From: a virus
IMG/VR virus record: IMGVR_UViG_3300035698_012504
Coordinates: 1 to 58,693 of that record
Direction: 5' to 3' (one strand)
DNA length: 58,693 nt
Shown: one piece after another, positions 4,489 to 39,032 of the stretch
How positions within the stretch are numbered: position 1 is the stretch's first letter
How the letters are laid out: the number at the start of each line of letters is the position of its first letter
Notes under the pieces: model-generated
The model's input: the letters and a program-made list of their open reading frames with translations, nothing else
The model's database searches: none
What the model was told of the DNA's origin: nothing
Position numbers and translations under genes: made by a program

Positions 4489-4712
4489 TGTATGTAGATG
4501 TAAAAGTTAATATGATGCTTAGTGCCGTAATGTACAAAGATGCTGGAGATTTTCGCGACTTGTGTGTTCATAATTATACTAGACCACTAGCCATTAAACC
4601 AATTAGATATAGTGGATATGGTAGGGATATGGGTTATACAGCATACATTAGAGGTTTTAGATTTAAGGACGTATTTAACCAAGTAATGAAGAGAGGAATA
4701 GTATGGAAATAG
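4488..4712 (+). CDS. hypothetical small protein, array member (GTG start; C-term KRGIVWK)
   Basis: GTG at 4488 lies 10 nt after an AGAGGAG motif. Its stop overlaps the thyX start. Confidence 0.4.
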   Translation: MYVDVKVNMMLSAVMYKDAGDFRDLCVHNYTRPLAIKPIRYSGYGRDMGYTAYIRGFRFKDVFNQVMKRGIVWK

Positions 4713-15132: not shown

Positions 15133-15142
15133 GAGGAATTTA

Positions 15143-16684: not shown

Positions 16685-16690
16685 TTACAA

Positions 16691-17314: not shown

Positions 17315-17323
17315 GAGAATATA

Positions 17324-23792: not shown

Positions 23793-24305
23793 ATGGAAAC
23801 AAAAAATATTAATGGCAATCAAACTCCGAACGGTTGGACAGAATGGGGCAAGTATGTTCTCAAAACACTTGAGAGTATTACTAATAGATTAGATGATCTG
23901 CAAAAGGAATTGCAGGAGAATAGACTTGAACTAAATGATTATGGACATAAAGTAAAAGAAGAGATTAAAAAAGAAGTAGAAGGTTTTTATAAGAATTGTG
24001 ATTTAAAATGTGGCGGACTCTCAAAAGATATATTATCAATCACATCAACTGTTACTGAGAAAATAGCAGGAGATATTGAAAAATCAAATATGGTTTTTGA
24101 AGAAAAGATTAATATTACATCTAAAAAAATAGATAAATTTATTGCAGAAACTAATACTTTAGACGACAAGGTCGCTGCCGTCGATAAAGAAGTCACAATA
24201 TTAAAAGTTAAAGCTGGATTTATAGGAGGAATTGCTGCGCTTATAACCTCTGCTTTGGTATCTATTGTGCTCATGCTTTTAAAAGGATACTTCTTTGGAG
24301 GTTAA
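23793..24305 (+). CDS. coiled-coil protein with a C-terminal transmembrane anchor
   Basis: Heptad-like Lys/Glu-rich body, then GFIGGIAALITSALVSIVLMLL. Confidence 0.5.
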   Translation: METKNINGNQTPNGWTEWGKYVLKTLESITNRLDDLQKELQENRLELNDYGHKVKEEIKKEVEGFYKNCDLKCGGLSKDILSITSTVTEKIAGDIEKSNMVFEEKINITSKKIDKFIAETNTLDDKVAAVDKEVTILKVKAGFIGGIAALITSALVSIVLMLLKGYFFGG

Positions 24306-24653: not shown

Positions 24654-26315
24654 ATGACGTATAAACCATCATTTAGAAAATACAAAGCCCTTAAAGTTAA
24701 AAAACCAAAAAGAAATATTAGGGCCACTGATAAGCGAGGGCAAGTAACTATAAAAGGAAAATCTATATCAATTACTGAAGTTGAGAAGCTACATCAAAAT
24801 AAAAAGGTAAGGAAACCTAAAACTATATATAGAAATAGAACAAGATCTGATGAACACAGACATTATCCATTAAATATAGTGGTTGTTGCATATAATGAAT
24901 TAGAATATACTATGAAATGTGTAGAATCTATCAGAAAGAATACAAAAGGATCATATGCCCTCTATTTAGTAGACAATGGGTCAGATGATAAAACATATAA
25001 ATACTTTAGGACTGTTAAAAATGCAAATATTATAAGGATTGATAAGAATCGGGGATATGCATATGGATGCAATGAAGCATTGCGTAAGATATTTCGTGGT
25101 GATGTGATTATATTAAATAGCAATATAATTGTTCCAAAAAATTGGACCACCCACCTTTTAAATGTTTTAAATTCTAATGAAAATATAGGTATGGTTGGTC
25201 CAGTGTCCAATGATATTAAAGGGGCACAGAATATAAATGTAGATATTAATTGTTCGCCTCAGGAGATTAATAAATTATCTGATAAGATTCAGATGAGTGC
25301 AGGAACTGCCAAAATTAAAGTAGATAATATTTGTGGACATTGTGTTGTTATACGTGGAGATGTATTTAAACAAATTGGATTATTTGATCCCGTATTTGTA
25401 TGTGATACCTTCGGAAATAATGATTACTGTAAGAGAGTAAAACTAATGGGGAAAGAGATAGTAATTTCAAAGGGATCGTTTGTTTACCATTGCACCAACG
25501 AATCACCTATTAGTATTGATGAAAAAGAATATACAAAACGGTTCGAATTTAACACAGGATTAACTCAAAAGAAATGGAATAATAAAGGAGTTGATCTTGA
25601 TAGTACGTTAATATTAGATATGGATGAATACGAGGACCTTGTATCTATTATAACACCATGCTTCAATAGTCATAACTTTATAGAAGCATGTGTAAATTCT
25701 GTCCTTACCCAAACTCATAAAAATATTGAAATGATAATAGTTGATGATGGATCTAATGCAGAGACAAAAAGAAAACTAAAGATGTGTGTTGATAAAAGCG
25801 AGCGTATTAAGTTAATAACTAATCCTATAAATAAGGGGAGATCGTTCTCTAGGAATAGAGCTATAGAAAATGCTAAAGGAAAATATATCCTCCCTCTTGA
25901 TTCTGATGATCTTATACATAGACAGTGTGTTGCAATATTAGTGAAGCATATGAAAGAAAATGATGATGCGAAAATTTGTTATCCTTTAACAAAGGAATTT
26001 GGAAATTGTAATAAAATATGGTTTTATCCTTATAGAAAAGATTTACTAGTTCAACAAAATTTATTACCATGCACCTCTATGTTCTTAAAGGATGCTTGGA
26101 TAAACTGTGGTGGGTATGATATAAGGGTGGATGGATACGAAGACTGGGACTTTTGGTTGAGAATGTATGATAGTAATACAAGGGCAATTGGTGTACCAGA
26201 ACCAATATTTTTTTATAGAAAACACAATACTAATTCTGCCAATGGTATAGATAGAAAACATGGGCACGATATAGTAACCAAAATTAAATCATTCCACCCT
26301 AAATTATTTGGATAG
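24654..26315 (+). CDS. bifunctional family-2 glycosyltransferase (two GT-A domains)
   Basis: VVVAYNELEYTMKCVESI...LVDNGSDDKT plus a DxD motif, and IITPCFNSHNFIEACVNSVLTQTHKNIEMIIVDDGSNAET...LPLDSDD. Confidence 0.8.
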   Translation: MTYKPSFRKYKALKVKKPKRNIRATDKRGQVTIKGKSISITEVEKLHQNKKVRKPKTIYRNRTRSDEHRHYPLNIVVVAYNELEYTMKCVESIRKNTKGSYALYLVDNGSDDKTYKYFRTVKNANIIRIDKNRGYAYGCNEALRKIFRGDVIILNSNIIVPKNWTTHLLNVLNSNENIGMVGPVSNDIKGAQNINVDINCSPQEINKLSDKIQMSAGTAKIKVDNICGHCVVIRGDVFKQIGLFDPVFVCDTFGNNDYCKRVKLMGKEIVISKGSFVYHCTNESPISIDEKEYTKRFEFNTGLTQKKWNNKGVDLDSTLILDMDEYEDLVSIITPCFNSHNFIEACVNSVLTQTHKNIEMIIVDDGSNAETKRKLKMCVDKSERIKLITNPINKGRSFSRNRAIENAKGKYILPLDSDDLIHRQCVAILVKHMKENDDAKICYPLTKEFGNCNKIWFYPYRKDLLVQQNLLPCTSMFLKDAWINCGGYDIRVDGYEDWDFWLRMYDSNTRAIGVPEPIFFYRKHNTNSANGIDRKHGHDIVTKIKSFHPKLFG

Positions 26316-26319
26316 TAAA

Positions 26320-27300
26320 ATGAAAATTTTATTCTGTACATATGAAATGTCTGATTATGGATTAGATCTATTATATGATGGATTGTGTAAATTATTAGGA
26401 CCTGATAAAATATTCGAGTATCCAGTAAAACCATATTATCATGGCACAAGAGACGGAAGGTTTGCAAGATACCCTCAGTTTTTCAAATACCCATTAAAAC
26501 ATTCAAATGCTGATATAGATCGTAAACTAAGAAGAGATTTTTTCGATGTTATATTAGTAGGGTGTAGATCAAAAAATGATTTCACATATCCCGATGCGGT
26601 TAATGTAAATCATGAATATGTAATGATCAAAGAATTAATAAAACTGAAGTCAAAAAAGATACCTACTTTCTTAGTAGATCAAGATGACTTCCCACCAATT
26701 AATAACACTCTCTTTAAAAAAGAGATACCTAATTCTCTTGCTTATTTTAAGCGAGAGTATAGAAAGGATGTACACCATCCTAATAACATACACCCCCTCC
26801 CATTTTCTTTTTCTACAGATTTTATGCCAAACAGTAGATCTAAAATAAAAAATAGGATTTTGTTCTGGGCAGGGGATATAAATACAGATCATAGACGACA
26901 ATATATTGAGAGAATGAAACAAGAACTCAAGTTAGATTACAATAAGAAGTTTCCCCCTAATGAGTTCCATTCAATTTTAAGTAAATCTAGAATGGCTTTA
27001 AATCTTTTTGGATTTGGAAACGATACTGTTAGATATTATGAGATACCAGTATATGGTGCTATGTTATTCTCTATGAAATCAAACAACTTAATTCAACATG
27101 ATTTTATTAACAATAAATCTGCTATTCTTTTTTCGTCCCCTCAAGAAATGGTGGATAAATTTAAATTTTATAGGAAGAAGCATCTTCTTATAGAGAAGAT
27201 ATCAACTGAAGGGTTTAAACATGTTAGAAGATATCATAATAGTAAAACAAGGGCTGAACAGTTTATGAAAATAGTTAGGAATTATAATGGAAAGAAATAA
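26320..27300 (+). CDS. glycosyltransferase, GT1/CgeB-like C-terminal domain (tentative)
   Basis: LFWAGDINTDHRRQYIERM...RYYEIPVYGAMLFS matches the GT-B E-x7-E-like C-terminus. The start was moved to the ATG at 26320. Confidence 0.4.
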   Translation: MKILFCTYEMSDYGLDLLYDGLCKLLGPDKIFEYPVKPYYHGTRDGRFARYPQFFKYPLKHSNADIDRKLRRDFFDVILVGCRSKNDFTYPDAVNVNHEYVMIKELIKLKSKKIPTFLVDQDDFPPINNTLFKKEIPNSLAYFKREYRKDVHHPNNIHPLPFSFSTDFMPNSRSKIKNRILFWAGDINTDHRRQYIERMKQELKLDYNKKFPPNEFHSILSKSRMALNLFGFGNDTVRYYEIPVYGAMLFSMKSNNLIQHDFINNKSAILFSSPQEMVDKFKFYRKKHLLIEKISTEGFKHVRRYHNSKTRAEQFMKIVRNYNGKK

Positions 27301-28108
27301 AATATCAGTAGTTATACCTTGTTATAATTATGGGAGATTTATTGTTAGGTGTGTTAACTCAGTATTAATGCAGACATATAAAAATTATGAAATTATTATC
27401 GTGGATGATTACTCAGATGAGAAAACACGAACACTAATAAAACAACAAAGAGCTAAGAACAAAAAAATAATAAAAACTATTTTTAATTCTAAAAATTTAG
27501 GAACAGCTACATCTAGAAATAAAGGAATTGAACGAGCATCTGGTGATTATATTTTGCTATTAGATGCAGATGATTACCTTCTTACAAGATGCTTAGAAAA
27601 ATTAATAGTTGCTCATAAAAAGTATGAAGAAGACATAATATACTCTAAAAATATTAGATTATCTGCTACAGGTACTAGAACTGGTGTGGAGGGACAAAGC
27701 TATTCAATTGAGAGATTAAAAAATTATGAATGTGTTATGTTCGTAACATCATTATTTAAGAAAGAGCATTGGAACGAGGTCGGTAGATTTGATACATCTA
27801 TGGTAGCATGTGAAGATTGGGAATTCTGGATTAATATGGCGAAACATAGTCATTATGGTAAGTTGATAGACGATATACTATGGTGTAGAACAGATCATAA
27901 AACTTCTAAATTTGAAACAACTGATTCACATCGTATGGATGAGGTAGTAAGACAACTCAGAGAAAAACATCATCCTGGTTTTTTAAATGAGCAACGAAAT
28001 TGGAAAAAGAAAAATAGAAGAACTATAAGTACACCTATCAATAAACAACGAAGTTTATTGATCAAAAAATATGAAATAACTTCTAGAAATAAAGAAAGGG
28101 TAAAATAG
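27287..28108 (+). CDS. family-2 glycosyltransferase
   Basis: ISVVIPCYNYGRFIVRCVNSVLMQTYKNYEIIIVDDYSDEKT...LLLDADD. Confidence 0.8.
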   Translation: MERNKISVVIPCYNYGRFIVRCVNSVLMQTYKNYEIIIVDDYSDEKTRTLIKQQRAKNKKIIKTIFNSKNLGTATSRNKGIERASGDYILLLDADDYLLTRCLEKLIVAHKKYEEDIIYSKNIRLSATGTRTGVEGQSYSIERLKNYECVMFVTSLFKKEHWNEVGRFDTSMVACEDWEFWINMAKHSHYGKLIDDILWCRTDHKTSKFETTDSHRMDEVVRQLREKHHPGFLNEQRNWKKKNRRTISTPINKQRSLLIKKYEITSRNKERVK

Positions 28109-28962
28109 TGTTTGATAAAAAATATTCATCTTTGAAAAAAAGACATCTACAATTAAGAGAACATCTTGGAATAAGAACAGGAGTAGTTAAAAAAATAGAG
28201 AAAAACTCAACTAATACAGTAGGTATTATTATTCCTGCATTTAATCAATTAGCTTATTGTAAGAAATGTATTAACTCTGTGATTCACAATACTAAACAAT
28301 CATATAAATTAATTTTGGTAAATAATGGGTCTACCGATGGGATAGCACATTATTTTGATACAATAGAAGATGCAGAGGTAATACATTCATCTAAGAATCT
28401 AGGGTTTCCTGCAGGAGTTAACCTAGGTATAAAAAGACATCTTGCTCTAGGCTTAGGGCACTGTGTATTATTAAATACTGATACAGTTGTAACTCCTGGA
28501 TGGCTGAAGCGGTTAACTAGCTACTTCCCTTCTGATCCAAAGTTAGGAATGATTGGCCCTAGAACAAATTGTGCTGGATCAAAGCAACAATTACATGGTA
28601 TTGGGGAGTTAAACAAACCTAAAGAAATTAATGATTTTGGAAAACAATTAAGATTAAATCATGCTGGGCAATTAGAAGATATAAATGTTCTTATAGGATT
28701 TTGTGTAGTAATAAGAAAAAATGTATTGAGAGAAGTTGGACTACTTGATGAAAGATTTGGGTTAGGTAACTGTGATGATGACGATTATTGTAAAAGAGTA
28801 AAGATGGCAGGATATGACCTCAAAATGGCTAAGGATGTATATGTTCATCATTATGGAAGTAAAACATTTCAAGCAATGAAAGTAGATCGTGGGACTTTGA
28901 TTAAAGAAAATAGAAAGAAATTTCAAGAGAAGTGGAAAAAAGGAATGAAGAATGAAAAATAG
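28108..28962 (+). CDS. family-2 glycosyltransferase
   Basis: VGIIIPAFNQLAYCKKCINSV...LILVNNGSTDG and DDDDYCKRV. GTG start. Confidence 0.75.
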   Translation: MFDKKYSSLKKRHLQLREHLGIRTGVVKKIEKNSTNTVGIIIPAFNQLAYCKKCINSVIHNTKQSYKLILVNNGSTDGIAHYFDTIEDAEVIHSSKNLGFPAGVNLGIKRHLALGLGHCVLLNTDTVVTPGWLKRLTSYFPSDPKLGMIGPRTNCAGSKQQLHGIGELNKPKEINDFGKQLRLNHAGQLEDINVLIGFCVVIRKNVLREVGLLDERFGLGNCDDDDYCKRVKMAGYDLKMAKDVYVHHYGSKTFQAMKVDRGTLIKENRKKFQEKWKKGMKNEK

Positions 28963-29773
28963 AGCAATAGTAACTGTTACAGGAGGCGAGCCGTCATATA
29001 ATGAGTTAGCAACAATAACCCATTTTTTCATGAAACTTTATGCTAAAAAAGTTAATGCTGATTTTATTGTTTGGAATAATGTAGAGCAGCATAAATTTCC
29101 TCATTATAAAAAATTATTTATAGGGGATTTATTAGAACATTATAATCGGGTATTATATTTAGATACAGATATACTAGTTAAACTAGATTCGCCAGATATA
29201 TTTAATATAGTTCCCCCAGAAAAATTGGGGATGTATAATGAAGGTAGAGAATATAACGATCTTATCTCACAAAAAAGAATAGGGTCCTTTACGCAAGAAT
29301 ACAATAAAGTATTACTGGCGCATGGATTCCCTCCTGCAGACATTAGTAATTGGAGTGGAAAAAGTGAATTTAATACTGGGGTAATCGTTGCATCAAAAAA
29401 ACACATAACTTTATTTAGAGCACCCCTTAAAGAAATGATGGTTAAGGGTCTAAGAGATCAATCATATATTAACATGCGAGTAATATCTAGGAAGGTTCCT
29501 ATGATGGATATAGGGATCGATTTTAATTGTAAGTTCAATCATAAGAAGCCTGCTGAAAAGGCACACTTTATACATTTTATACATGTTATTGGGTATAAAG
29601 CAAGACAAGAAGAATTAGAGAAATTTGTTAAGGTCCAATATGGGGAAAAAAGGGTCCGCGAAATATACTGTGGAAAAATCGGTCAACCCCTAAAGGAAAT
29701 CGCTCCACCAAAAGAAGAAGAAGAGAAAAATATAGAAGAAGGAAATTCATCGGAAGAAAAAGATAATGAATAA
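28952..29773 (+). CDS. nucleotide-diphospho-sugar transferase, GT8-like (tentative)
   Basis: YLDTDILV matches the GT8 DxD motif (LgtC-like). Confidence 0.4.
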   Translation: MKNRAIVTVTGGEPSYNELATITHFFMKLYAKKVNADFIVWNNVEQHKFPHYKKLFIGDLLEHYNRVLYLDTDILVKLDSPDIFNIVPPEKLGMYNEGREYNDLISQKRIGSFTQEYNKVLLAHGFPPADISNWSGKSEFNTGVIVASKKHITLFRAPLKEMMVKGLRDQSYINMRVISRKVPMMDIGIDFNCKFNHKKPAEKAHFIHFIHVIGYKARQEELEKFVKVQYGEKRVREIYCGKIGQPLKEIAPPKEEEEKNIEEGNSSEEKDNE

Positions 29774-30293
29774 ACTTTTTTGTATTGGGCTCTCTAGAAC
29801 AGGAACAACCAGTATTCATAAAGCTTTAAATATATTAGGAATAAATAGCTTTCATTTTCCTACTAACAATAGGCAAATAAAATCTCATAAAGCATTATCA
29901 GATATTACAATTTCATATAGATTTGAACAGTTAGATAAAAAATATCCAAATTCTAAGTTTATATTTACGACAAGGGATATAGAAGGTTGGTTAAAATCAT
30001 GTAAATATCACTTCGAAGTAAGATCAAGTATGTCTAATATAAAATCTGGAAAATGGAAAAAAATATTATCAAAAGCAAGGAAGGATATGTATGGGATAGA
30101 TTTTTATAATGAAAAAGTTTGGAGAGATGTATGTATCAGGCATACTGATTATGTTAAAGAATATTTTAAAAATAGAGGCGATGATTTATTAATTATAGAT
30201 ATATGCTCTGGTGAAGGATGGAAAAAAATCTGCCCATTTTTGAATTGTAGCATACCAAATAAGGAGTTTCCGCATGCCTTCAGAACAAAATAA
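29766..30293 (+). CDS. sulfotransferase-family protein (Stf0-like)
   Basis: GLSRTGTTSI matches the 5'-PSB loop and FIFTTRDIEGWLKS matches the 3'-PB motif. Paralog of the ORF at 33584. Confidence 0.55.
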   Translation: MNKLFCIGLSRTGTTSIHKALNILGINSFHFPTNNRQIKSHKALSDITISYRFEQLDKKYPNSKFIFTTRDIEGWLKSCKYHFEVRSSMSNIKSGKWKKILSKARKDMYGIDFYNEKVWRDVCIRHTDYVKEYFKNRGDDLLIIDICSGEGWKKICPFLNCSIPNKEFPHAFRTK

Positions 30294-31056
30294 GAATTTT
30301 GCTATAATCTTTCCCGGAAGGACAGGATGCACGTTTACTATGCACTCTATAAATAAAAATAAAAATGTATCTATTCTATTAGAACCATTGCCAAATAATG
30401 CTAGAGAAATAATAGAGCAATATAATAAGGAATCAAATACTGATTACAAGTTGATAAACATTAAGCGTGCTGTGGAGAGCAACACCGTACCATATGGTAT
30501 GTCTCTTCTTATGAAACTAATAGCCAAGAGTCAAGAAAATATACTGAGAGATTTCTACTCTAGAAAAAGACCCACGACCGAAGTATGTGGAACAAACATT
30601 CAACTAGCAGATGTAATGGACCATGATAAATTTATAAAAATGATGCAAGAATATAATGTACAAATTATAGTATATACTCGTCAAAATATTATTAAACATT
30701 ATGTATCGTGGAGAAATCTTAGAATAAGAATAAAACACGGAAACAAACAAGTTGAACCATATACTGTGGATATAGATCACTTAAAATTATACTTAGCTAA
30801 AGAAAACGTTAATGATAAACATGTTAACTTTGTTAAAAAAATAGGTAACCCGTATATGGTTACTAGTTACGAAGAATTTTTAGAGAACAAGAAAAGAAAT
30901 ATACGAAATATATGTAATTTTGTAGGATTTAAACACTGTGGCGAACTATCTAAAATGACAAAGAAAACTAATGATGATTTAAAAAAATCAATTAAAAATT
31001 ACGAAGAAGTTGCACAAGTATTAAAAAATACTAAATTTGAATGGATGCTAAAATAG
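30274..31056 (+). CDS. sulfotransferase-family protein (Stf0-like)
   Basis: FPGRTGCT (P-loop-like) and IVYTRQNIIKHYVSW (R..N....YVS, 3'-PB-like). Confidence 0.5.
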   Translation: MPSEQNKNFAIIFPGRTGCTFTMHSINKNKNVSILLEPLPNNAREIIEQYNKESNTDYKLINIKRAVESNTVPYGMSLLMKLIAKSQENILRDFYSRKRPTTEVCGTNIQLADVMDHDKFIKMMQEYNVQIIVYTRQNIIKHYVSWRNLRIRIKHGNKQVEPYTVDIDHLKLYLAKENVNDKHVNFVKKIGNPYMVTSYEEFLENKKRNIRNICNFVGFKHCGELSKMTKKTNDDLKKSIKNYEEVAQVLKNTKFEWMLK

Positions 31057-31082
31057 AAAGGCTAGGGATAGAGAAATATTAA

Positions 31083-31970
31083 ATGAATATAGAAAAACAT
31101 TTGAGTGAACATACAAAAATAATGTTTGGACCATTCTTTGGAGAGTTTGGATGGGAAGTACTAAAATGGGCACCATTTATAAAATGGTATCGTAATAAGT
31201 ACCAATCTAAAAAAATAGCAGTTTCCACTAGAGGAGACCGATTTGACTTATATTATAATTCAGCTGATTTTATCCACACATTCAAGATAAAAGGAGACTA
31301 TAAACGATTCAAACCCACTGGAGTCGAATGTAATTTACCAGGTGAGATAAGAAAAAATATTATGAATGATATAAGAAATAAATATCCAAATTGGTATATA
31401 TTTAATCCATCATGGAGTATTTCCCCAGGTAAGTCTATCAATAAACATAATTCATTATATCATTTCGAACCTAGGCCATCGAACTCTAAAAAAATATTGG
31501 ATAGACTAGATGGTAAAATTCCAATAGTTATTAGCTCAAGACATAGACTAGATAATAATCTTCGCAATTGGGGAAGGAAGCGTTGGATAAATCTTTTTAG
31601 ATTAATCGAAAAAGAAGACAAGTATGTAGTTTTTGTGGCCGGTAAATCTCCATCATACATCAAATCTTCAAATAATAATTTTTACAACCTAGAAAGTCTT
31701 GTGGATGAACAAACATCAGAGGTAGGATTATCTATAGCAGCAATCAACGCATCTCGACTTGTAGTGTCCTCCCAATCAGGAATAGTATTATTGACAAATA
31801 TATTAAAGACCCCTATTATATTTTGGGGGGATCAAATAAGGAGACATAGTTGTAAGGATAATCCTCTAAATAATAATGTAATTGGAATAGAAGATCTAAA
31901 CTATAATATTCGTCCGAAGGTAATATTAGAAGAGATCTCTAAGTTTTTTAAGGAGTTAACACATGAATAA
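31083..31970 (+). CDS. glycosyltransferase family 9-like (heptosyltransferase fold)
   Basis: IVISSRH...KRW...VVFVAGKS and EVGLSIAAINASRLVVSSQSGIVLLTNILKTPIIFWG match the GT9 C-terminal signature. Confidence 0.5.
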   Translation: MNIEKHLSEHTKIMFGPFFGEFGWEVLKWAPFIKWYRNKYQSKKIAVSTRGDRFDLYYNSADFIHTFKIKGDYKRFKPTGVECNLPGEIRKNIMNDIRNKYPNWYIFNPSWSISPGKSINKHNSLYHFEPRPSNSKKILDRLDGKIPIVISSRHRLDNNLRNWGRKRWINLFRLIEKEDKYVVFVAGKSPSYIKSSNNNFYNLESLVDEQTSEVGLSIAAINASRLVVSSQSGIVLLTNILKTPIIFWGDQIRRHSCKDNPLNNNVIGIEDLNYNIRPKVILEEISKFFKELTHE

Positions 31971-32628
31971 TTTTTCAGTAGTTTCTGTGCCAAGAAGTGG
32001 TTCCCATTTCTTGGCAAAAATGTTAAATAAAAGTCCAAGTTGGACAGTTATCCCAGAGCACGACGATGACTTCGGAAGAGAGATCGGAAAGGGATTTTCT
32101 AAAAAAGAGAAATGGCTTAGAAGGATAAATAAAAGGCTTCAACAAGACTTTTATGGGGAAGTGTCTCCACAACATATATTTCATCTTGATGAAATTAATG
32201 CAAATAAAAAAGTATGTTTGTACCGACACCCATATGATTTTATGCTGTCTACTTTCAATAGAAAAAACCAATATATTACTCAGTTCCCAATGGCATATGG
32301 CCTCTGGTATATCCCATTCTATTTTACAATAGATAGATATATTAGAGAAGGTATATACTCTATGAAATTTGAGAAGATGATTAATAATAAAAAAGTTATA
32401 TTAAATTTGTGTGATTATTTAGGAATAAATGATATCGATTCAGATAAAATTAATATGAATAAAAAAATAAACAGTTCGGAGTCTCATAATCAAAAAAAAC
32501 AGTGGAAATCCTTATCAATGTTAACCCCGATTCAATTTGAAAAATTAAAAGCTATGGATTGGTTTTGTAAGAAGTATTACGGAGACACAATGCAAAAACA
32601 CCATAATAAAAGATTAGAAGTTGAGTAA
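31963..32628 (+). CDS. sulfotransferase-family protein
   Basis: VSVPRSGSHFLAKML (5'-PSB) and LYRHPYDFMLS (3'-PB RxPxDxxxS). Confidence 0.6.
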   Translation: MNNFSVVSVPRSGSHFLAKMLNKSPSWTVIPEHDDDFGREIGKGFSKKEKWLRRINKRLQQDFYGEVSPQHIFHLDEINANKKVCLYRHPYDFMLSTFNRKNQYITQFPMAYGLWYIPFYFTIDRYIREGIYSMKFEKMINNKKVILNLCDYLGINDIDSDKINMNKKINSSESHNQKKQWKSLSMLTPIQFEKLKAMDWFCKKYYGDTMQKHHNKRLEVE

Positions 32629-33085
32629 TATGTTAGATGTAAATATGAAAGATCTTGTAGAAAAAGTAAAGGATGCGTTGTATCGTACCCATTTTGTTTT
32701 TGGACCTTCTGATAAAAGATTACATATTGGTAAAAATGTAAAGGTTTGGAATACTCTTTTCAATGTAGTATCTGGGCATGTTTATATAGGAAATAATTCA
32801 TTTTTTGGACATAATTGTATGGTTCTTACTGGTAGACATAAATGGGTTGATGGTAAACGTGCAAGATTATCTGGTAAAGATGAAATTCCTAAAAAAGGAT
32901 TTGATATAAATATAGGTAAAGGGTGTTGGATTGCATCAGGCGCTATAATTTTAGGAGGGGTTAGTATTGGAGACCACTCAATTGTAGCAGCAGGTTCAGT
33001 AGTTACTAAGGATGTCCCATCCGGAATGGTTGTGGCTGGAAACCCCGCTAGAATTATAAAATCAGTAAATGAGTTGAGTGTATAA
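32621..33085 (+). CDS. hexapeptide-repeat (left-handed beta-helix) O-acetyltransferase
   Basis: IGKGCWIASGAIILGGVSIGDHSIVAAGSVVTKDVPSGMVVAGNPARII. Confidence 0.8.
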   Translation: MSNMLDVNMKDLVEKVKDALYRTHFVFGPSDKRLHIGKNVKVWNTLFNVVSGHVYIGNNSFFGHNCMVLTGRHKWVDGKRARLSGKDEIPKKGFDINIGKGCWIASGAIILGGVSIGDHSIVAAGSVVTKDVPSGMVVAGNPARIIKSVNELSV

Positions 33086-33087
33086 AT

Positions 33088-33573
33088 ATGATAAAATTAA
33101 ATGTTGGTTGCGGCACAGATATAAAGGAAGGGTATGTTAATATTGATGTTCGTAAAACTCATCCAAGTGTTAAAATAGCAGATGTATGTAAATTACCATA
33201 TAAAAATGGTACTGTAGATGAGATAGTTGCAAAAGATGTGTTTGAACATATATCGTTTCATGACACTCAGAAGCTTTTGAAACATTGGGTTTCTAAATTG
33301 AAGAAAGGGGGAAAATTATTCATTAAATGTCCTTCGATTAATATGATTGCAAAAACGATTATAAAGAACAATAATAACCTAGAAGAAATGGAGGATATGA
33401 TAAGAAGAATTTTTGGTGGTCAAAATTACCCAGAAAACACTCATTTGACAATAGGCCATCCAAAGTTAATGAGAAAATATTTGAAGGGTTTGGGCATTAA
33501 ACATAAAAACATTAAAATACAAAATGGTGGATTCGGAAACGGTACTAATATGAAAGTTTGGGTTGTAAAATAA
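33088..33573 (+). CDS. class I SAM-dependent methyltransferase
   Basis: LNVGCGTD (motif I) and GGKLFIKCP. Confidence 0.7.
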   Translation: MIKLNVGCGTDIKEGYVNIDVRKTHPSVKIADVCKLPYKNGTVDEIVAKDVFEHISFHDTQKLLKHWVSKLKKGGKLFIKCPSINMIAKTIIKNNNNLEEMEDMIRRIFGGQNYPENTHLTIGHPKLMRKYLKGLGIKHKNIKIQNGGFGNGTNMKVWVVK

Positions 33574-33583
33574 GGATATAGTT

Positions 33584-34114
33584 ATGAAAATATTTGGATT
33601 AGGGTTAGCAAAAACAGGGTCAAATAGTTTAAACAATGCTTTAAAAGTATTGGGATATTCTTCTATACATGGTCCAAAAAATTGGAAACAAATAGATGAT
33701 CATGAAGGAGTGACAGATGTCGTAATATTATTTCCATTTGAAGATATTTATAAACGATATCCACATGACAAATATATCTTAATGGTTAGGGATAATGATA
33801 AATGGATAGATTCATTAGAGTACCAATATTTTAAGAATTTGGGAGGACGTCCACAAATTCAGATAGATAGAATGATTGAATTTTATGGAACATATAACTT
33901 TAATCGAACCACATGGATAAATAGAAAGATTAAACATGAACACGATGTGAAAGAATCTTTTAAAGGTAATCCTAATTTTATAACTATGGATATATGTGGG
34001 GGAGTTGATGGATGGGACATTCTTTGTAATTTTTTAGATAAGGATGTTCCGGATATAATATTTCCTCATTCAAATAAAAGAAAAGTAAATAGGAAGAAAA
34101 AACTGACAGCATAG
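33584..34114 (+). CDS. sulfotransferase-family protein (paralog of 29766)
   Basis: GLAKTGSNSL. MDICGGVDGWDILCNFL matches IDICSGEGWKKICPFL in the 29766 protein. Confidence 0.55.
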   Translation: MKIFGLGLAKTGSNSLNNALKVLGYSSIHGPKNWKQIDDHEGVTDVVILFPFEDIYKRYPHDKYILMVRDNDKWIDSLEYQYFKNLGGRPQIQIDRMIEFYGTYNFNRTTWINRKIKHEHDVKESFKGNPNFITMDICGGVDGWDILCNFLDKDVPDIIFPHSNKRKVNRKKKLTA

Positions 34115-34128
34115 GAGTATTAGAGGAT

Positions 34129-34914
34129 ATGAAAATAAACTACTACATAATGTCAGCATTTAATGTATGGTTTGATTATTTCAATTTAGCAATTCCTACA
34201 AATGAATGGACTAAAAGAAGATTAGATATTTTTGAGAAAACTACTTTAAGGTCTATTGGAAATCAGACTAATAAGAACTTTAAATATATTGTTTTCTTTT
34301 ACAAACCTGCATGTGACGAAGATGATATAGTAAGAATAGACGGCTATAGTGATATAACTCCTATCTTTTTAGATGAACCATTTAACTCTAAGATTCATTT
34401 GAAGCCCATACTTGAGAAAGATACAAAAGATGGTGATGTTGTAGTAGTGACAAAAATTGATTCTGATGATATATTATATCCTACGTTTGTTGATGTAGTA
34501 TATGGGTTGGTTGATACTGACTTTCTGGATAGAAATAAAGCATTTTATTGTTTTCCAAAAGGGTATCGTTATAGATTGTATGATTATTCTCTTTGGAAAG
34601 AAAAATGGACAACATGTTCTATTTTTACGATTGTTGAAAGAATAATTGATGGTGAATTACAATCTGCTTTTAGAGGATATGACTATAAGCATACTGAAGT
34701 GTCTAGAATGTTTAAATCTCAAAAACTTCAAAGACCAGTTAAGGGTATTGGAGCTATGTGGTTAAAATATGATAGTGAAGTATCTATGAATGTAAGAAAT
34801 AAAGATAAAATGTTAGCCAATAAGATTAAGCATAAATTTATAAAACTAGTTGATGATGATTTAGCTAGGCGCGTGTGTGATGATTTTAATATTCCTATAG
34901 ATAGTTTAAAATAG
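34129..34914 (+). CDS. DxDD-motif protein, possible GT-A glycosyltransferase (paralog of 48960)
   Basis: NQTNKNFKYIVFF and VVVTKIDSDDILYPTFVD match NQTNQNFEWFTFF and FIFTKLDNDDALNKTFID in the 48960 protein. Confidence 0.35.
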   Translation: MKINYYIMSAFNVWFDYFNLAIPTNEWTKRRLDIFEKTTLRSIGNQTNKNFKYIVFFYKPACDEDDIVRIDGYSDITPIFLDEPFNSKIHLKPILEKDTKDGDVVVVTKIDSDDILYPTFVDVVYGLVDTDFLDRNKAFYCFPKGYRYRLYDYSLWKEKWTTCSIFTIVERIIDGELQSAFRGYDYKHTEVSRMFKSQKLQRPVKGIGAMWLKYDSEVSMNVRNKDKMLANKIKHKFIKLVDDDLARRVCDDFNIPIDSLK

Positions 34915-34924
34915 AGGATTCAAT

Positions 34925-35473
34925 ATGAAACAGAAAATGTCTGGTCGAGGTCGTAAAGATAGTAGAATTGCTTTACGAAAATATATAGAAGTGCTTCCTG
35001 GTGGAGTAATGGTGGAGGTTGGTAGTTGTAAAGGAGAGTCAACTGTACTGTTTGCAAAGAAGTTTAAGTTAGTGTTTGCAATTGACCCATGGGAAGGATT
35101 TTATCAATATGGAGATAAGAAAGATCAATTTCTAGATGCAGGAATGTTAAAAGAGGAAAGAGATTTTGATAAAGCTGTACATGGGGTTAGCAATATAGCT
35201 AAGATATGTTCTAAGAGTAATTTAGTTGTAGATAAGTTTGATGATAAATCTTTGGACTTTGTTTATATAGATGGATGCCACACCTATGAATCAGTTCGTG
35301 AAGATATATCCATTTGGCTTCCAAAAATTAAACCAACTGGTATGATTGGTGGACATGATTATAATCTTAAGGGTTGGCCTTTGGTTGTGAAAGCTATACA
35401 TGAATCTTTTGGAAAACCACCAGATATACGAATGAATGGGGCAAACTGGGCATATAGGAAGGTGGAATTATGA
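34925..35473 (+). CDS. class I SAM-dependent O-methyltransferase (TylF/CmcI-like)
   Basis: VMVEVGSCKGES and FVYIDGCHTYESV. Confidence 0.5.
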   Translation: MKQKMSGRGRKDSRIALRKYIEVLPGGVMVEVGSCKGESTVLFAKKFKLVFAIDPWEGFYQYGDKKDQFLDAGMLKEERDFDKAVHGVSNIAKICSKSNLVVDKFDDKSLDFVYIDGCHTYESVREDISIWLPKIKPTGMIGGHDYNLKGWPLVVKAIHESFGKPPDIRMNGANWAYRKVEL

Positions 35474-36213
35474 ATGAAGTAGATTTTTTAGAAGAGGTAT
35501 CCCATACATATGTATCCCCAGATGATCCACAATATGAAAAAATGGATGAATTATCTGTTGCAACATTTAAACCATTCCTAAAAAAAGATTATAATGGATT
35601 AATGCTAGGATATTTTAATGGTAGAGATACTGATAAATTGTATCCTCTTTTGAAAAGACTTGATGTGGTAGAAGGGTGTAAAGAGTTTATTGGAAGAGGA
35701 CTTGCTAAAGGATATCCTAATGTGTACTTCTTCAATTCCTTATTCGAAGACTTTGAGCTACCTGAAGACACTAAACCATATGATTGTGTATTTGCTTTAT
35801 ATGTAATGGAACATGTATTAGATGTTGATAAGTTTTTGGATATGATTAGTAGAGTAATATCTAAAGATGGATTACTTTTTATTGTTGTTCCAAATTCTAG
35901 ATCGTTATCTAGACAATTGGCAAAGCATATGGAATTAATTGATGACTTAAAAACATTGACTGAGAATGATCTCAATCATGGCCACCGACGAGTATATGAT
36001 AGAGTTGAATTGAATAGAGATTTAGAGAGAAATGGATTTGAAGTTATTTCACAAGGTGGAATAATGCTGAAGATACTTGCAGATTTTCAAATGAGTAAGA
36101 TGATTGAATTAGGCATTTTAGGTGATGCTCAGTTGGAAGGGTTGTATAAATTGGGACTTGAATATCCAGATCTATGCGGATCTTTGTTTTCCATATGTAA
36201 ACAAAAGGATTAG
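35470..36213 (+). CDS. methyltransferase-like protein (type 11/12; tentative)
   Basis: YDCVFALYVMEHVLDVDKFLDMISRVISKDGLLFIVVPN, matching post-motif II/III of class I methyltransferases. Confidence 0.4.
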   Translation: MNEVDFLEEVSHTYVSPDDPQYEKMDELSVATFKPFLKKDYNGLMLGYFNGRDTDKLYPLLKRLDVVEGCKEFIGRGLAKGYPNVYFFNSLFEDFELPEDTKPYDCVFALYVMEHVLDVDKFLDMISRVISKDGLLFIVVPNSRSLSRQLAKHMELIDDLKTLTENDLNHGHRRVYDRVELNRDLERNGFEVISQGGIMLKILADFQMSKMIELGILGDAQLEGLYKLGLEYPDLCGSLFSICKQKD

Positions 36214-36215
36214 TT

Positions 36216-37487
36216 ATGACAAACGTTTTAGTATTTCCGTGTGGTAGTGAAATTGGATTAGAGATACATCGCGCACTTCAATATGAAAAAGATATAAGTC
36301 TATATGGGTTATCTAGTGTTGATGATCATGGAAAATATGTTTACGCTAATTATATCGATGGGATACCTTATGTATCAGATGAAGAATTTATACCAAAAAT
36401 AGTAGAAGTTATTAAAAAATATAAAATAGATGTTATTTTTCCTGCACATGATAGTGTCCTTTTAGAATTATCTAATCACGATCTACCATGTGAACTTATA
36501 GGGTCGTCATATAACACAAATTATATATGTAGAAGAAAAAGTGTATCTTATAATACATTCGAATATATGATGAATGTCCCAAAAATGTATAGTAGGGATT
36601 ATGTAAATTATAATGATTTCCCTATATTTTTAAAACCAGATATAGGGCAAGGATCAGTAGGCACGGTTCTAGTTAATAATAGGAAAGAATTGAATGCTGA
36701 ATTATATAAAGACTCATCTCTATTAATATTAGAGTATTTACCTGGAAAAGAATATACTGTAGATTGTTTCTCAGATAAAGATGGGGTATTGAAATTTTGT
36801 GGCTCCAGGGAAAGAAAGAGAATAAAGAATGGTATATCTGTTAACTCTTCTCCAGTACATAACGAAGAGTTTCAAAATATAGCAAAAATTATTCAAGAGA
36901 AATTAAAATTCATAGGGCCTTGGTTCTTTCAATTGAAAGAGAATAAGGATGGGTATTTATCTTTACTTGAGATTGCTTCGAGAATAAGCGGAACAATGGG
37001 ACTGAATAGAAATCTGGGTGTTAATTTTCCATTGTTAAGCATCCACGTTGCCCTTGGGCGGGATATAGATATTATTCCAAACACATATGATATTGAAGTA
37101 GATAGGGCATTGATTAGTAGATACGATATAGATATTGATTATGAAAATGTTTATGTGGATCTTGACGATACGTTAATAATCGATAAGAAAATAAATGAAT
37201 TCCTATTAGCTTTTTTATATCAATGTCAAAACAAAAATAAAAATATTTATTTAATATCAAAACATATTAAAGATCCATATATAACTCTTATGAATAAACA
37301 TATAGATTATAAATTCTTTAAAACAATCATTCATATAGAAACGACTGACAACAAATACAAATATATTAAACCCAATTCTATTTTTATAGATGATTCATTT
37401 GCAGAAAGAAGAGATGTGTATGAAAACTGCAATATTCCCACATTCTCTACAGATGGGGTAGAAGGGTTATTTGATTGGAGAAGATAA
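36216..37487 (+). CDS. ATP-grasp enzyme with a C-terminal HAD-like segment
   Basis: FLKPDIGQGSVGTVLV...LILEYLPGKEYTVDCF (ATP-grasp), and C-terminal YVDLDDTLII (HAD motif I, DxDxT). Confidence 0.5.
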   Translation: MTNVLVFPCGSEIGLEIHRALQYEKDISLYGLSSVDDHGKYVYANYIDGIPYVSDEEFIPKIVEVIKKYKIDVIFPAHDSVLLELSNHDLPCELIGSSYNTNYICRRKSVSYNTFEYMMNVPKMYSRDYVNYNDFPIFLKPDIGQGSVGTVLVNNRKELNAELYKDSSLLILEYLPGKEYTVDCFSDKDGVLKFCGSRERKRIKNGISVNSSPVHNEEFQNIAKIIQEKLKFIGPWFFQLKENKDGYLSLLEIASRISGTMGLNRNLGVNFPLLSIHVALGRDIDIIPNTYDIEVDRALISRYDIDIDYENVYVDLDDTLIIDKKINEFLLAFLYQCQNKNKNIYLISKHIKDPYITLMNKHIDYKFFKTIIHIETTDNKYKYIKPNSIFIDDSFAERRDVYENCNIPTFSTDGVEGLFDWRR

Positions 37488-37659
37488 TATGAATTATTTA
37501 TATTTGGTCTAAAAGCTTGAGGACAAAGTTTTAAACTATAACAATACTCAGCTTAAAAATTTAACAAAAACTGACATTAAAACAATTAACTCAGTTTTTA
37601 ATAATTATAAAAATGAGATGGATTTTTTTGGATATGTTAAAATATAATAGGAGAAGTAA

Positions 37660-38478
37660 ATGAAATCGATTAGCGACAAGTTATTAGAAAATTATTTTAA
37701 TAGTGGTGGTCTAGCTATACCCCAAAAACATTGGTTGAGAAATAAACCAATTGCACATAAAGGTTTATGGACACCAGATAATCCAAGTAATATTCCAGAG
37801 AATAGTCTTCCTGCAGTAGAAAATGCGATTAGACATAAATATGCAGTTGAAGTAGATATACAGTTATCATTAGATGGAGAATTAGTAGTATTTCATGACT
37901 TATTTTTAAATAAACTATGTGGAATAGGTGGGACAATTTCTCAATATACTCTGAAGCAATTAAAAGAATTCAAACTTTCAGAAACAGAATATACAATTCC
38001 AACATTAGAAGAAGTATTAGAACTTACATCTAAAAAAACACCCGTTCTTGTAGACATTAAAGGAGATGTTATGGGGAAGCAAGGAACTGCAAAATTATTG
38101 GCGCACGAGTTAAAAAATTATAAAGGGCATGCTGCCATGCATTCTTTTAACTTTAGTGACTTAAATTACTTCAAACGAGTTGCCCCCAATATTCTTAGGG
38201 GACAAATAATATCTGACTTCAATAAACAAGATGTATCGTTCATTCTTAAATTATTATTAAGAGGAGCAGCCAATTTATTTGAGGCCAAAGGAGATCCTCA
38301 TTTTATTTCATTGGATGTAAGGTCTAAAGTGCAAAGAATCATTAAGTCAGTATGGGCTAATAAAAGAGGCGGAGTAATATTGGCCTGGTTGGTTGATACT
38401 AAAACAATGGAAGCAGTATCAAGGGGATTTGCAGATAACATTATATTTGAAAGAATTAATCCCAAACAACCGTGGTAA
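37660..38478 (+). CDS. glycerophosphodiester phosphodiesterase (GDPD family)
   Basis: IAHKG...ENSLPAVENAIRHKYAVEVDIQLSLDGELVVFHD. Confidence 0.75.
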   Translation: MKSISDKLLENYFNSGGLAIPQKHWLRNKPIAHKGLWTPDNPSNIPENSLPAVENAIRHKYAVEVDIQLSLDGELVVFHDLFLNKLCGIGGTISQYTLKQLKEFKLSETEYTIPTLEEVLELTSKKTPVLVDIKGDVMGKQGTAKLLAHELKNYKGHAAMHSFNFSDLNYFKRVAPNILRGQIISDFNKQDVSFILKLLLRGAANLFEAKGDPHFISLDVRSKVQRIIKSVWANKRGGVILAWLVDTKTMEAVSRGFADNIIFERINPKQPW

Positions 38479-38495
38479 TAAAAACGAAAGGAACG

Positions 38496-39032
38496 ATGAT
38501 GTCAGTAGATTATAAAATGTTTGTAGCGATGGATGAAAATAATTTAATAGGAAAGAATGGACGCGCTCCATGGAATCTTGGGAAACATACGAAAAGATTC
38601 AAAGGCCTTACTGAAGGTAAAGCAATATTGATGGGAAGAAAAACTTTTGAATGTTTGGGAAATAAGCCCTTGGCAAAACGTGTTAACATAGTCATGTCTC
38701 GTGATCCAAATTACAAAGCACCTCAATATGTATATGTCGTTCACTCCCTAGAGGAAGTGGATGAGTTAGCTGAAAAAAACAATATAGGCGAAATTTTTGT
38801 TATTGGCGGTGCGGAGCTATATAGGTTATATTTTATGAAAGTGTCTAGATTATATATAACTAAAGTAAAAGATAAAATTGAACCAGGAAAAGATAGTGCC
38901 TACTTCGATTGGAATGCTGGAGCAGATGTATATAAGCATAGAATGTGGATAGAACTTAATAAGGATGAGTACGAAAAAGATGAAGAAAATACTCACGATT
39001 TTGAGCTTTTGGAAATGGAACCTTACGAGTAG
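38496..39032 (+). CDS. frd: dihydrofolate reductase
   Basis: MFVAMDENNLIGKNGRAPWNL...FKGLTEGKAILMGRKTFE and VIGGAELY. The start was moved to the ATGATG at 38496. Confidence 0.85.
   Translation: MMSVDYKMFVAMDENNLIGKNGRAPWNLGKHTKRFKGLTEGKAILMGRKTFECLGNKPLAKRVNIVMSRDPNYKAPQYVYVVHSLEEVDELAEKNNIGEIFVIGGAELYRLYFMKVSRLYITKVKDKIEPGKDSAYFDWNAGADVYKHRMWIELNKDEYEKDEENTHDFELLEMEPYE

Follow-up and report, generated by a model that had tools for sequence, protein, structure and literature searches.

A candidate glycan island in an uncultivated phage

The analysis was performed on IMG/VR virus record IMGVR_UViG_3300035698_012504, positions 1 to 58,693; this whole stretch of 58,693 nt is referred to as the window. 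It centered on an island at positions 24,654 to 38,478, which is dense in predicted glycosyltransferases (GT), sulfotransferases and other glycan-modifying enzymes. Judged by its gene content, the island very probably specifies a phage-encoded pathway for the cytoplasmic assembly of a complex glycan and for its tailoring, including multiple sulfation.

The open reading frame (ORF) listing places 17 consecutive plus-strand genes, mostly overlapping, within the island (g1 to g17, Table 1). An earlier note on this DNA, made from the sequence alone, had described such a co-oriented and mostly overlapping block, which is real, but had stated a count of 18 genes while listing 17 itself. Neighboring ORFs overlap at 9 or 10 of the 16 junctions, varying with the start codon chosen (public gene calls start g2 at an alternative ATG at 26320, g10 at 32630 and g13 at 34150), and the remaining gaps do not exceed 26 nt. 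The sole exception is a gap of 172 nt ahead of g17, one of the few genuine intergenic spaces that the window contains. Pfam or profile searches classified 16 of the 17 ORFs; Pfam gathering scores were passed by 14 of the proteins, with g7, g8 and g9 falling outside. Almost all domain calls of the earlier note survived this classification, including the GT9-like reading of g8. Two genes located farther downstream, termed satellites here, are listed with the island.

Table 1. Predicted genes of the island, its two satellites and other features of the window
Feature	Position	Strand	Predicted product	Evidence
g1	24654..26315	+	Two-domain GT2, 553 aa	Pfam Glycos_transf_2, 169 bits, residues 73-285 and 331-527
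g2	26308..27300	+	CgeB-like glycosyltransferase	PF13524 Glyco_trans_1_2, E 5e-14, 52.8 bits, cut-off 25
g3	27287..28108	+	GT2, basic C-terminal tail	PF00535, 120 bits; LDADD motif
g4	28108..28962	+	GT2	PF00535, 73 bits; PF13641, 68 bits
g5	28952..29773	+	GT8-like (retaining) glycosyltransferase	PF01501, 29.3 bits, cut-off 24.3
g6	29766..30293	+	Sulfotransfer_4-type sulfotransferase, 175 aa	PF17784, E 2e-33, 116 bits, cut-off 22.8
g7	30274..31056	+	NodH/Stf0-like carbohydrate sulfotransferase, 260 aa	Family profile
g8	31083..31970	+	Remote GT9-like (GT-B) glycosyltransferase, family mainly from viral contigs	16-member profile
g9	31963..32628	+	Probable sulfotransferase, new divergent family	Sulfotransfer_3, 25.2 bits, under cut-off 27
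g10	32621..33085	+	Left-handed beta-helix (hexapeptide) acyltransferase	PF00132 Hexapep, E 3e-15, 56 bits
g11	33088..33573	+	Small class I S-adenosylmethionine (SAM) methyltransferase	PF08241, 34 bits, cut-off 21
g12	33584..34114	+	Sulfotransfer_4-type sulfotransferase	PF17784, E 6e-26, 92 bits, cut-off 22.8
g13	34129..34914	+	'Putative rhamnosyl transferase' (DxDD protein)	PF11316, 36 bits, cut-off 23
g14	34925..35473	+	Methyltransf_24 (TylF-like) methyltransferase	PF13578, E 8e-18
g15	35470..36213	+	Methyltransf_23 SAM methyltransferase	PF13489, E 3e-16
g16	36216..37487	+	ATP-grasp ligase with C-terminal extension carrying HAD-like motifs	PF15632 ATPgrasp_Ter, 76 bits
g17	37660..38478	+	Glycerophosphodiester phosphodiesterase (GDPD)	PF03009, E 3e-18, 67 bits
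Satellite	48960..49862	+	Rhamno_transf glycosyltransferase	PF11316, 68 bits
Satellite	53730..54476	+	GT2 glycosyltransferase	PF00535, 118 bits
Upstream ORF	23793..24305		Coiled-coil-like protein with terminal hydrophobic segment	
Four ORFs	14212..18589		306, 547, 207 and 421 aa	
HNH endonuclease	40033..40554		HNH endonuclease	
Ribonucleotide reductase	40573..43803		Class II ribonucleotide reductase, 1076 aa	
Homing-endonuclease-like genes	18611..19177, 40033..40554, 46574..48415, 57179..58075		Two HNH, one GIY-YIG, one four-repeat DUF7487 protein	
Volactin-type gene	56158..57222		Volactin-type actin homolog	PF25216, E 1e-61
Accessory genes	4703..5485, 11561..12328, 19174..19704, 20747..21250, 38472..39032, 51494..51940		ThyX, dihydrofolate reductase (DHFR), peptidyl-tRNA hydrolase, Macro domain protein, CapR-homology-domain protein, LigD-type 3'-phosphoesterase	

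Four predicted sulfotransferases in three families

By sequence, g6, g7, g9 and g12 belong to the superfamily of sulfotransferases that depend on 3'-phosphoadenosine 5'-phosphosulfate (PAPS), and they represent three families, with g9 a probable case. All four retain the 5'-phosphosulfate loop together with the Arg...Ser motif for the 3'-phosphate, and the motif residues are invariant or nearly so in the family alignments. The presence of four sulfotransferases with PAPS-binding motifs, already claimed from the bare sequence, was borne out in this graded form. The label 'Stf0-like', which had been given to all four, fits g7 only: none of the four matches PF09037 (Stf0) directly, the family profile of g7 is the only one to reach a Stf0 structure, and g6 and g12 are members of Sulfotransfer_4.

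The two Sulfotransfer_4 proteins are paralogs (34% identity, E 2e-34). Their PAPS motifs read GLSRTGTTS at residue 8 and RDIEGWLKS at residue 70 in g6, and GLAKTGSNS at residue 7 and RDNDKWIDS at residue 69 in g12. Both match sulfotransferases in the PDB at E values of 1e-8 to 1e-6, with SgdX2 and Schistosoma sulfotransferases as the PDB relatives of g6.

For g7, there was no direct match in Pfam, NCBIfam or PHROGs, none in the PDB with the single sequence as query, and no relative in a word-indexed search of 5.8 billion proteins. An exhaustive phmmer scan of 1.84 billion representatives recovered 364 relatives; among the 40 that were aligned, Sulfotransfer_3 was matched by 36, Sulfotransfer_1 by 20 and Stf0 by 8. 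The resulting family profile scored better against the NodH structure 9vki (E 3e-14) than against Stf0 1tex (E 1e-7). The PAPS motifs are FPGRTGCT and RQNIIKHYVS, and residues R136 and S145 are invariant in the family alignment. Judged by this profile, g7 is a NodH/Stf0-like carbohydrate sulfotransferase.

The g9 protein is probably a sulfotransferase of a new, divergent family. This family has seven members, including one homolog at 57% identity, encoded on the 30-kb landfill-leachate contig Ga0172380_10002275 (hereafter L007), and five viral homologs at 24–31%. Comparison of the g9 and g7 families by hhalign gave a probability of 94.8% and E 5e-8 over 159 columns, with the P-loop and the Arg...Ser motif in register. 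Against the PDB, the g9 profile reached only the CurM and OLS sulfotransferases, at E 0.1–0.6. Its motifs are VPRSGSHF at residue 9 and RHPYDFMLS at residue 88, the relatives carrying GRSGT; the AlphaFold2 model of g9 was too poor to use (pLDDT 43). Scans against NCBIfam and PHROGs added nothing for g2, g5 to g9, g12 and g13, and PHROGs contains no family for any of the four sulfotransferases.

Glycosyltransferases of the island

Eight glycosyl-transfer domains lie in the island block, and about ten when the two satellites are included: five of GT2, one CgeB-like, one GT8-like, one GT9-like and two of PF11316, the last counted as transferases from the Pfam name alone. In g1, the GT2 domains follow a very basic N-terminal stretch of 70 residues, with a net charge of +13 over residues 1–40. 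The N-terminal GT2 domain of g1, which is 32% identical to g4, has NSN in place of the DSD, DAD or NTD of its paralogs and, on this evidence, could be atypical or impaired in catalysis. In g3, the last 40 residues have a net charge of +11. The g5 protein shares 31–35% identity with three tandem GT8 genes of L007, and g13 is a paralog of the satellite at 48960.

On its own, g8 has no direct Pfam match above the cut-off. The profile built from its 16 homologs, mostly from viral contigs, matches only GT9 structures, namely WaaF (3e-5), WaaC (2e-4), TibC (8e-3) and a GT9 protein of unknown function, and 6 of the 16 family members match Pfam Glyco_transf_9; for these reasons, the GT9-like label is supported as remote homology.

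On other viral contigs, g8-type GT9-like domains occur in fusion with 300–650 extra residues (L022:9143-10927, L023:3596-6478 and L024:10004-12184). The L022 protein has a GT-A-like N-terminal part with an LDNDM motif, and those of L023 and L024 have long C-terminal extensions. A candidate fusion on L027, of a sulfotransferase-like N-terminal domain to a GT9-like domain, was rejected at an hhalign probability of 0.1% and with no PDB match.

Methyltransferases, acyltransferase, ligase and phosphodiesterase

The SAM methyltransferases and the left-handed beta-helix (LbH) acyltransferase all have homologs on L007: g10 at 59% identity (L007:9557-9991), g11 at 57% (L007:18411-18896), g14 at 63% (L007:11513-12058) and g15 at 46% (L007:16536-17291). 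Given its TylF-like family, g14 probably acts as a sugar O-methyltransferase; in the metagenomic loci L120 and L123, members of this family are found beside sulfotransferases of the NodH-like type.

The product of g16 had been read as a fusion of ATP-grasp and haloacid dehalogenase (HAD) domains. The ATP-grasp half holds, with additional matches to an NCBIfam PRK12767-like model (111 bits, under its cut-off) and to PDB 2pn1 (E 8e-8). The HAD half is a matter of motifs, DLDDT (motif I) and FIDDS (motif IV), readable in the C-terminal 123 aa, a part that has no Pfam match at E up to 1 and no HAD match in the PDB. The gene is assigned to the island by adjacency only and has no homolog on L007.

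Similarly, the identity of g17 as a GDPD stands, whereas its inclusion in the cluster is uncertain, being a matter of adjacency across the 172-nt gap and having no counterpart on L007. The protein also matches the GDPD-containing part of a PHROG annotated as 'tail fiber protein' (E 5e-13). The gene could be part of the nucleotide-metabolism set downstream instead of the glycan island.

Conservation of the island and of a two-gene module

A divergent version of the island is present on L007, where it adjoins UvsX/RecA and Volactin genes. The syntenic core, at 30–63% identity, comprises GT2s (the L007 gene encodes a protein with three GT2 domains), three GT8s, a Sulfotransfer_4 protein, the homolog of g8, an LbH acyltransferase, the homolog of g9, a PF11316 protein and three methyltransferases, Methyltransf_24 among them. 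The retention of this core in so divergent a contig argues for a maintained function. The two islands differ in that L007 has two sulfotransferases against four in the window, lacks g7, g12, g16 and g17, and carries in addition a GNAT protein, WbqC, a B12-radical SAM enzyme and a DegT aminotransferase, a set of the amino-sugar tailoring kind.

The L007 island is contiguous, whereas two genes of the window are displaced 10–15 kb downstream. The satellite at 48960 has its best L007 match inside the cluster (L007:18907-19686, 32% identity), and the satellite at 53730 is 50% identical to the final gene of that cluster (L007:19691-20383). Because the best L007 matches of both fall within its island, the two satellites belong to the set, in agreement with the earlier note, which had named them as a GT2 and a DxDD paralog.

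A GT9-like gene and a g9-type sulfotransferase gene are adjacent in the window (31083-32628) and on L028, L127 and L131, and lie close to each other on L007 and L017. L028 and L017 are IMG/VR contigs, and L127 and L131 are metagenome contigs of unconfirmed origin. The loci, at least six in number, span a GC content of 31–62%, and for this reason the pair, judged by its gene order and composition, looks like a conserved, mobile two-gene module.

Among deposited phages, tblastn with concatenated g6 to g9 gave no match, and with g1 to g5 it gave generic GT2 similarity of 25–30% with no syntenic cluster; megablast of the island against 50,697 phage records was also without a match. Short Sulfotransfer_4 genes 30–45% identical to g6 were found on at least 101 IMG/VR contigs, some of them longer than 400 kb. 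In 78 viral Sulfotransfer_4 loci (L135 to L212), one sulfotransferase was detected in 75, two in three and more in none. Three or more glycosyltransferases were detectable in none of the 78, as seen with profiles derived from the window, which undercount transferases. By these counts, predicted viral sulfotransferases are not rare in metagenomes, and an island of four sulfotransferases and ten transferases is exceptional; the toolkit had aptly been called 'unusually complete'.

Judged by their gene neighborhoods, the cellular proteins closest to g7 are indicative of polysaccharide chemistry. One is the C-terminal domain of a 1047-aa GT2 fusion encoded directly after Wzm/Wzt, with GT4s, a Glyco_trans_1_2 gene and a TylF/Methyltransf_24 gene as neighbors. 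The second, a tandem sulfotransferase, is encoded ahead of a third sulfotransferase and an ABC2 membrane protein, and the third relative adjoins a Methyltransf_24 gene. From this context, the bacterial analog of the island would be an ABC-transporter-dependent surface-glycan locus minus its membrane components.

Phage origin and genomic setting

The upstream flank of the island encodes a gp44-type AAA+ clamp loader, which shares 33–36% identity with the clamp loaders of cyanomyophages, a Pelagibacter myophage and a Ralstonia jumbo phage. It also encodes a protein with a match to a phage primase PHROG. The downstream flank encodes DHFR, dCMP deaminase, a GNAT protein, an HNH endonuclease, a class II ribonucleotide reductase, an exonuclease of the FEN/RNase H type and a multi-repeat DUF7487 protein, followed at a greater distance by a phage PDDEXK endonuclease, a LigD-type phosphoesterase, the Volactin-type actin homolog and a GIY-YIG endonuclease. 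The window is AT-rich, nearly all of its ORFs are on the plus strand, and GC content is 0.29–0.31 across the cluster and 0.29–0.36 elsewhere. Since there is no compositional break, the island is no recent graft; since the flanks are tightly packed phage genes on the same strand, the origin is phage. The reading of the region as phage DNA, made earlier from the sequence, agrees with the clamp loader, the primase PHROG, the phage PDDEXK family, the homing endonucleases and the tight one-strand packing.

Each enzyme family of the island is typical of bacterial surface-glycan loci, and the island could in principle be a bacterial polysaccharide locus or the product of a chimeric assembly. We consider this extremely unlikely. 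Independent public assemblies from different sources (ENA, Logan and JGI) contain the island DNA at 100% identity, over 20.5, 14.2 and 10.3 kb, which shows that it is no assembly artifact. The same-strand phage flanks and the even composition also speak against this explanation, as does the island beside UvsX/RecA and Volactin genes on L007, a second phage-like contig.

On its gene content, the source is described as a large, deeply branching phage that has a replication module of the T4 type. The only sample identified in the literature is that of L007, landfill leachate. Statements of absence made here cover 58.7 kb of a probably much larger genome: the window contains no T4-type structural module, and extension past its end gained 3.4 kb with small ORFs only. 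A search with the clamp loader found no close relatives in IMG/VR. Host inference from the phage peptidyl-tRNA hydrolase was uninformative, with about 30% identity to assorted Clostridia, Bdellovibrionales and others.

Several other features of the window were recorded (Table 1). The Volactin-type actin homolog, of which a relative also lies near the L007 glycan island, is by its family match a possible phage cytoskeletal protein. Phage homologs of the ribonucleotide reductase align with its ORF in two pieces covering only about 61%, a pattern suggestive of an intein or some other sizeable insertion; the gene directly upstream of this ORF encodes an HNH endonuclease. The load of homing-endonuclease-like genes further includes the four-repeat DUF7487 protein, whose counterparts in RaK2-like jumbo phages and in uncultured huge phages, at 36–42% identity, are multi-copy genes annotated as homing endonucleases. 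The four ORFs at 14212..18589 have no Pfam or PHROG match, and against deposited phages they gave only a marginal match of 97 residues (E 7e-4, Bacillus phage Mater). Lacking Pfam, PHROG or clear deposited-phage relatives, they gave no means of placing structural genes near the island. The accessory genes range from ThyX and DHFR to the CapR-homology-domain protein.

Candidate acceptors of the predicted glycan

No transmembrane helix was found in any of the 19 proteins of the island and satellites, the maximum Kyte-Doolittle mean over 19 residues being below 1.5. The island holds no initiating phosphoglycosyltransferase, flippase, polymerase, ligase or ABC exporter (no match to ABC2_membrane, ABC_tran or PGT). 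As had been noticed from the sequence, genes for PAPS or nucleotide-sugar synthesis are missing among the scanned ORFs of the window, the unscanned ones all being shorter than 135 aa. The ORF immediately upstream of the island encodes a coiled-coil-like protein with a terminal hydrophobic segment (AGFIGGIAALITSALVSIVLMLL) and is the only membrane-anchor candidate nearby. PAPS, SAM, acetyl-CoA and nucleotide sugars are cytoplasmic; therefore, all of the chemistry would take place on an acceptor exposed to the cytoplasm.

We hypothesize that the acceptor is provided by the structural proteins of the phage itself, and this full reading is proposed tentatively, as somewhat short of probable. During infection, the enzymes would draw on host UDP-, GDP- and dTDP-sugars, PAPS, SAM, acetyl-CoA and ATP. 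The transferases would build a branched hetero-oligosaccharide on the available acceptor, to which several sulfate esters, O-methyl caps, an acetyl group and possibly an amide-linked substituent would then be added; the g8–g9 pair would probably add one sugar and then sulfate it. Progeny virions would thereby gain a polyanionic, capped glycan coat, comparable to glycosylated mycobacteriophage capsids and giant-virus fibrils. Virion proteins are favored because a cytoplasm-only gene set is what protein glycosylation needs and no more, because the GT9-like/sulfotransferase pair spans very different GC contents and presumably different hosts, and because of these precedents, experimental in mycobacteriophages and predicted in giant viruses. 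A portable module of this kind suits an acceptor supplied by the virus more than a lipid core specific to one host, and ten transferase domains suggest de novo construction of a glycan instead of minor changes to a host polymer. The cytoplasmic protein heptosyltransferase TibC, itself a weak match of the g8 profile, is a member of GT9, and CgeB-type enzymes act on spore-surface proteins.

Several observations weigh against virion proteins as the acceptor. No structural gene adjoins the island, which has replication genes on one side and DHFR, dCMP deaminase and ribonucleotide reductase on the other, and the linkage to structural genes expected of phage virion-glycosylation systems was not seen in the window. 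This position suggests early or middle expression over late expression, and the T4 late-promoter motif TATAAATA shows no enrichment (26 occurrences against 21 expected). Sigma-70-like sites are rarer than in shuffled sequence, and the promoter scans are uninformative on expression timing. The relatives of g7 in Wzm/Wzt loci and the presence of GT8 and GT9, both LPS-core (lipopolysaccharide-core) families, point to lipid-linked acceptors, and known Sulfotransfer_4 members include small-molecule sulfotransferases. The status of g9 as a probable sulfotransferase and the first GT2 domain of g1, which lacks the DxD aspartates, also count here. The median isoelectric point (pI) is 9.5 for island proteins and 8.5 for the rest of the window (Mann-Whitney p = 0.003), which would fit association with a membrane surface equally well; basic proteins and termini are compatible with any anionic surface or substrate and do not discriminate between the models.

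The same gene set could serve remodeling of the host envelope, an explanation that we regard as unlikely though serious. Soluble transferases at the cytoplasmic face of the inner membrane would extend host glycans and cap them with sulfate and methyl groups. The substrates would be undecaprenyl-linked intermediates of O-antigen, capsule or S-layer glycan, or lipid A-core, and export would be left to host Wzm/Wzt, Wzx or MsbA. The altered surface would block superinfection, or the adsorption of progeny to infected cells and debris. Such a role would suit the location of the island among replication genes instead of structural ones, and the several basic termini, as found in peripheral membrane enzymes. 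The nearest cellular g7 relatives lie beside Wzm/Wzt or an ABC2 membrane protein, and the best solved relative is annotated 'LPS sulfotransferase NodH'. GT8 and GT9 enzymes of LPS-core synthesis work on the cytoplasmic face, and T4-like cyanophages carry LPS-type genes. Yet without an initiating transferase, flippase, ligase or exporter, each membrane step would need host proteins that accept a foreign glycan. About ten transferase domains far exceed the needs of serotype conversion by phages, where one sugar or one acetyl group is added and membrane proteins are used. Moreover, glycan newly exported during a lytic infection would merely dilute the existing surface, and a GT9-like/sulfotransferase module found across GC contents of 31–62% is hard to square with a host-specific acceptor.

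It is improbable, in our estimate, that the product is a small molecule, be it a sulfated glycolipid, a free sulfated oligosaccharide with decoration like that of Nod factors, or a metabolite that manipulates the host or its neighbors. The classes of Nod-factor decoration do match, with a NodH-like sulfotransferase, a NodL-like LbH acetyltransferase and SAM methyltransferases, and one L007 methyltransferase weakly matches Pfam NodS. Solved relatives of Sulfotransfer_4 act on small molecules or in natural-product pathways, ATPgrasp_Ter members are tied to metabolite biosynthesis according to the Pfam family description, and most viral Sulfotransfer_4 genes stand alone, no glycosyltransferase being detectable in their vicinity. 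On the other side, no NodA-, NodB- or NodC-type enzyme, processive membrane GT2, acyl- or lipid-handling gene or exporter was found among the island proteins, and a block of eight transferase domains implies that the glycan is large, in contrast to a small metabolite.

The setting of the island in a replication and nucleotide-metabolism module (clamp loader, DHFR, dCMP deaminase, ribonucleotide reductase and ThyX) also brings DNA into consideration. The basic enzymes encoded there, such as g1 with its N-terminal tail of +13, would act close to DNA and place a polyanionic, sulfated and methylated glycan on hydroxymethylated bases of the phage genome, as a hypermodification against host nucleases that would go beyond T-even glucosylation and the diverse DNA glycans described of late. 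In phages, a variety of glycans is known to be placed on 5-hydroxymethylcytosine by GT-A and GT-B enzymes (bioRxiv 10.1101/2023.12.21.572611). We nevertheless hold this to be very improbable. The scanned ORFs of the window include no ThyA-type hydroxymethylase, 5-methylpyrimidine dioxygenase/TET or C5 methyltransferase, and the thymidylate synthase present is ThyX. Known DNA glycans require one to a few transferases, not ten, and their sulfation is not mentioned in the cited study.

Novelty and comparison with known systems

Virus-encoded glycan clusters, solitary phage sulfotransferases and giant-virus clusters with one predicted sulfotransferase are already known. The predicted gene set is new in three respects: about ten glycosyl-transfer domains are combined in one phage with four sulfotransferases of three families and with methyl, acetyl and ATP-grasp tailoring; a second phage shares the core; and the GT9-like/sulfotransferase pair is conserved. 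If chemistry confirms the pathway, it would make the first sulfated glycan produced by a bacterial virus. That progeny virions carry this glycan, the first sulfated one known from a bacterial virus and built around the mobile GT9-like/sulfotransferase module, is our preferred proposal, offered as a possibility with not quite even prospects.

Sulfotransferases of phages have so far been isolated 'auxiliary metabolic genes' of unknown function (PMC10580990), and sulfated viral glycans have so far only been predicted, for giant viruses (PMC10117803). The island gives phage sulfotransferases a concrete biochemical context, namely the sulfation of a virus-built glycan, and a short list of testable enzymes. 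Should the virion coat be real, a strongly charged and capped glycan would join the known surface alterations of phages, with effects on adsorption, aggregation, particle binding and recognition. Should the host envelope be the target, this would be an unusually elaborate surface remodeling by a lytic phage. From the conserved pair, and from the occurrence of short Sulfotransfer_4 genes on more than 100 viral contigs, sulfation would seem to be a more widespread and so far unstudied trait among phages in the environment.

For Synechococcus phage S-SRM01 and the genomes of OM43-type phages, solitary Sulfotransfer_3 genes have been described and marked 'function unclear' (PMC10580990), and a sulfotransferase is listed among glacier-ice viral genes (PMC8290583). 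The island differs from such solitary genes, as viral Sulfotransfer_4 contigs nearly always have one copy and few or no neighboring transferases. With T4-like cyanophages, the present phage shares the character of a large lytic phage that has a T4-type replication module and host-like surface-glycan genes.

Bacterial ABC-transporter polysaccharide loci resemble the island in their families, which include GT2, CgeB-like, TylF/Methyltransf_24 and NodH/Stf0-like sulfotransferase proteins. In the ABC-transporter-dependent pathway for O-antigen, capsular polysaccharide or S-layer glycan, all steps are cytoplasmic. In contrast to those loci, the island has no Wzm/Wzt, no initiating transferase and no membrane protein of any kind.

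In mycobacteriophages, glycans occur on capsid and tail-tube subunits (Freeman et al. 2023, as cited in PMC12619734), and the cluster F1 phage Maravista has two glycosyltransferase genes (PMC11256854). The likeness lies in cytoplasmic glycosyltransferases of a phage that decorate its own structural proteins with no export machinery, which in the present case is the favored model, drawn from genes alone. Mycobacteriophages use few glycosyltransferase genes, as opposed to about ten domains, four sulfotransferases and no adjacent structural gene here. Their transferase genes lie beside structural genes, and to our knowledge sulfation has not been reported in the glycosylation of their virions.

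Among giant viruses of amoebae, the fibril-glycosylation clusters of Megavirinae (Moumouvirus australiensis and Cotonvirus) encode a predicted sulfotransferase together with sulfate adenylyltransferase/adenosine phosphosulfate kinase (Notaro et al. 2022, PMC10117803). These clusters have one sulfotransferase as compared with four in the island, and the giant viruses encode PAPS synthesis by way of these enzymes and nucleotide-sugar pathways, none of which were found in the window. The two systems are likened by gene content: both are viral multi-gene clusters that combine several glycosyltransferases with acetyl- or methyltransferases and with predicted sulfotransferases, and in both sulfation is predicted from sequence only.

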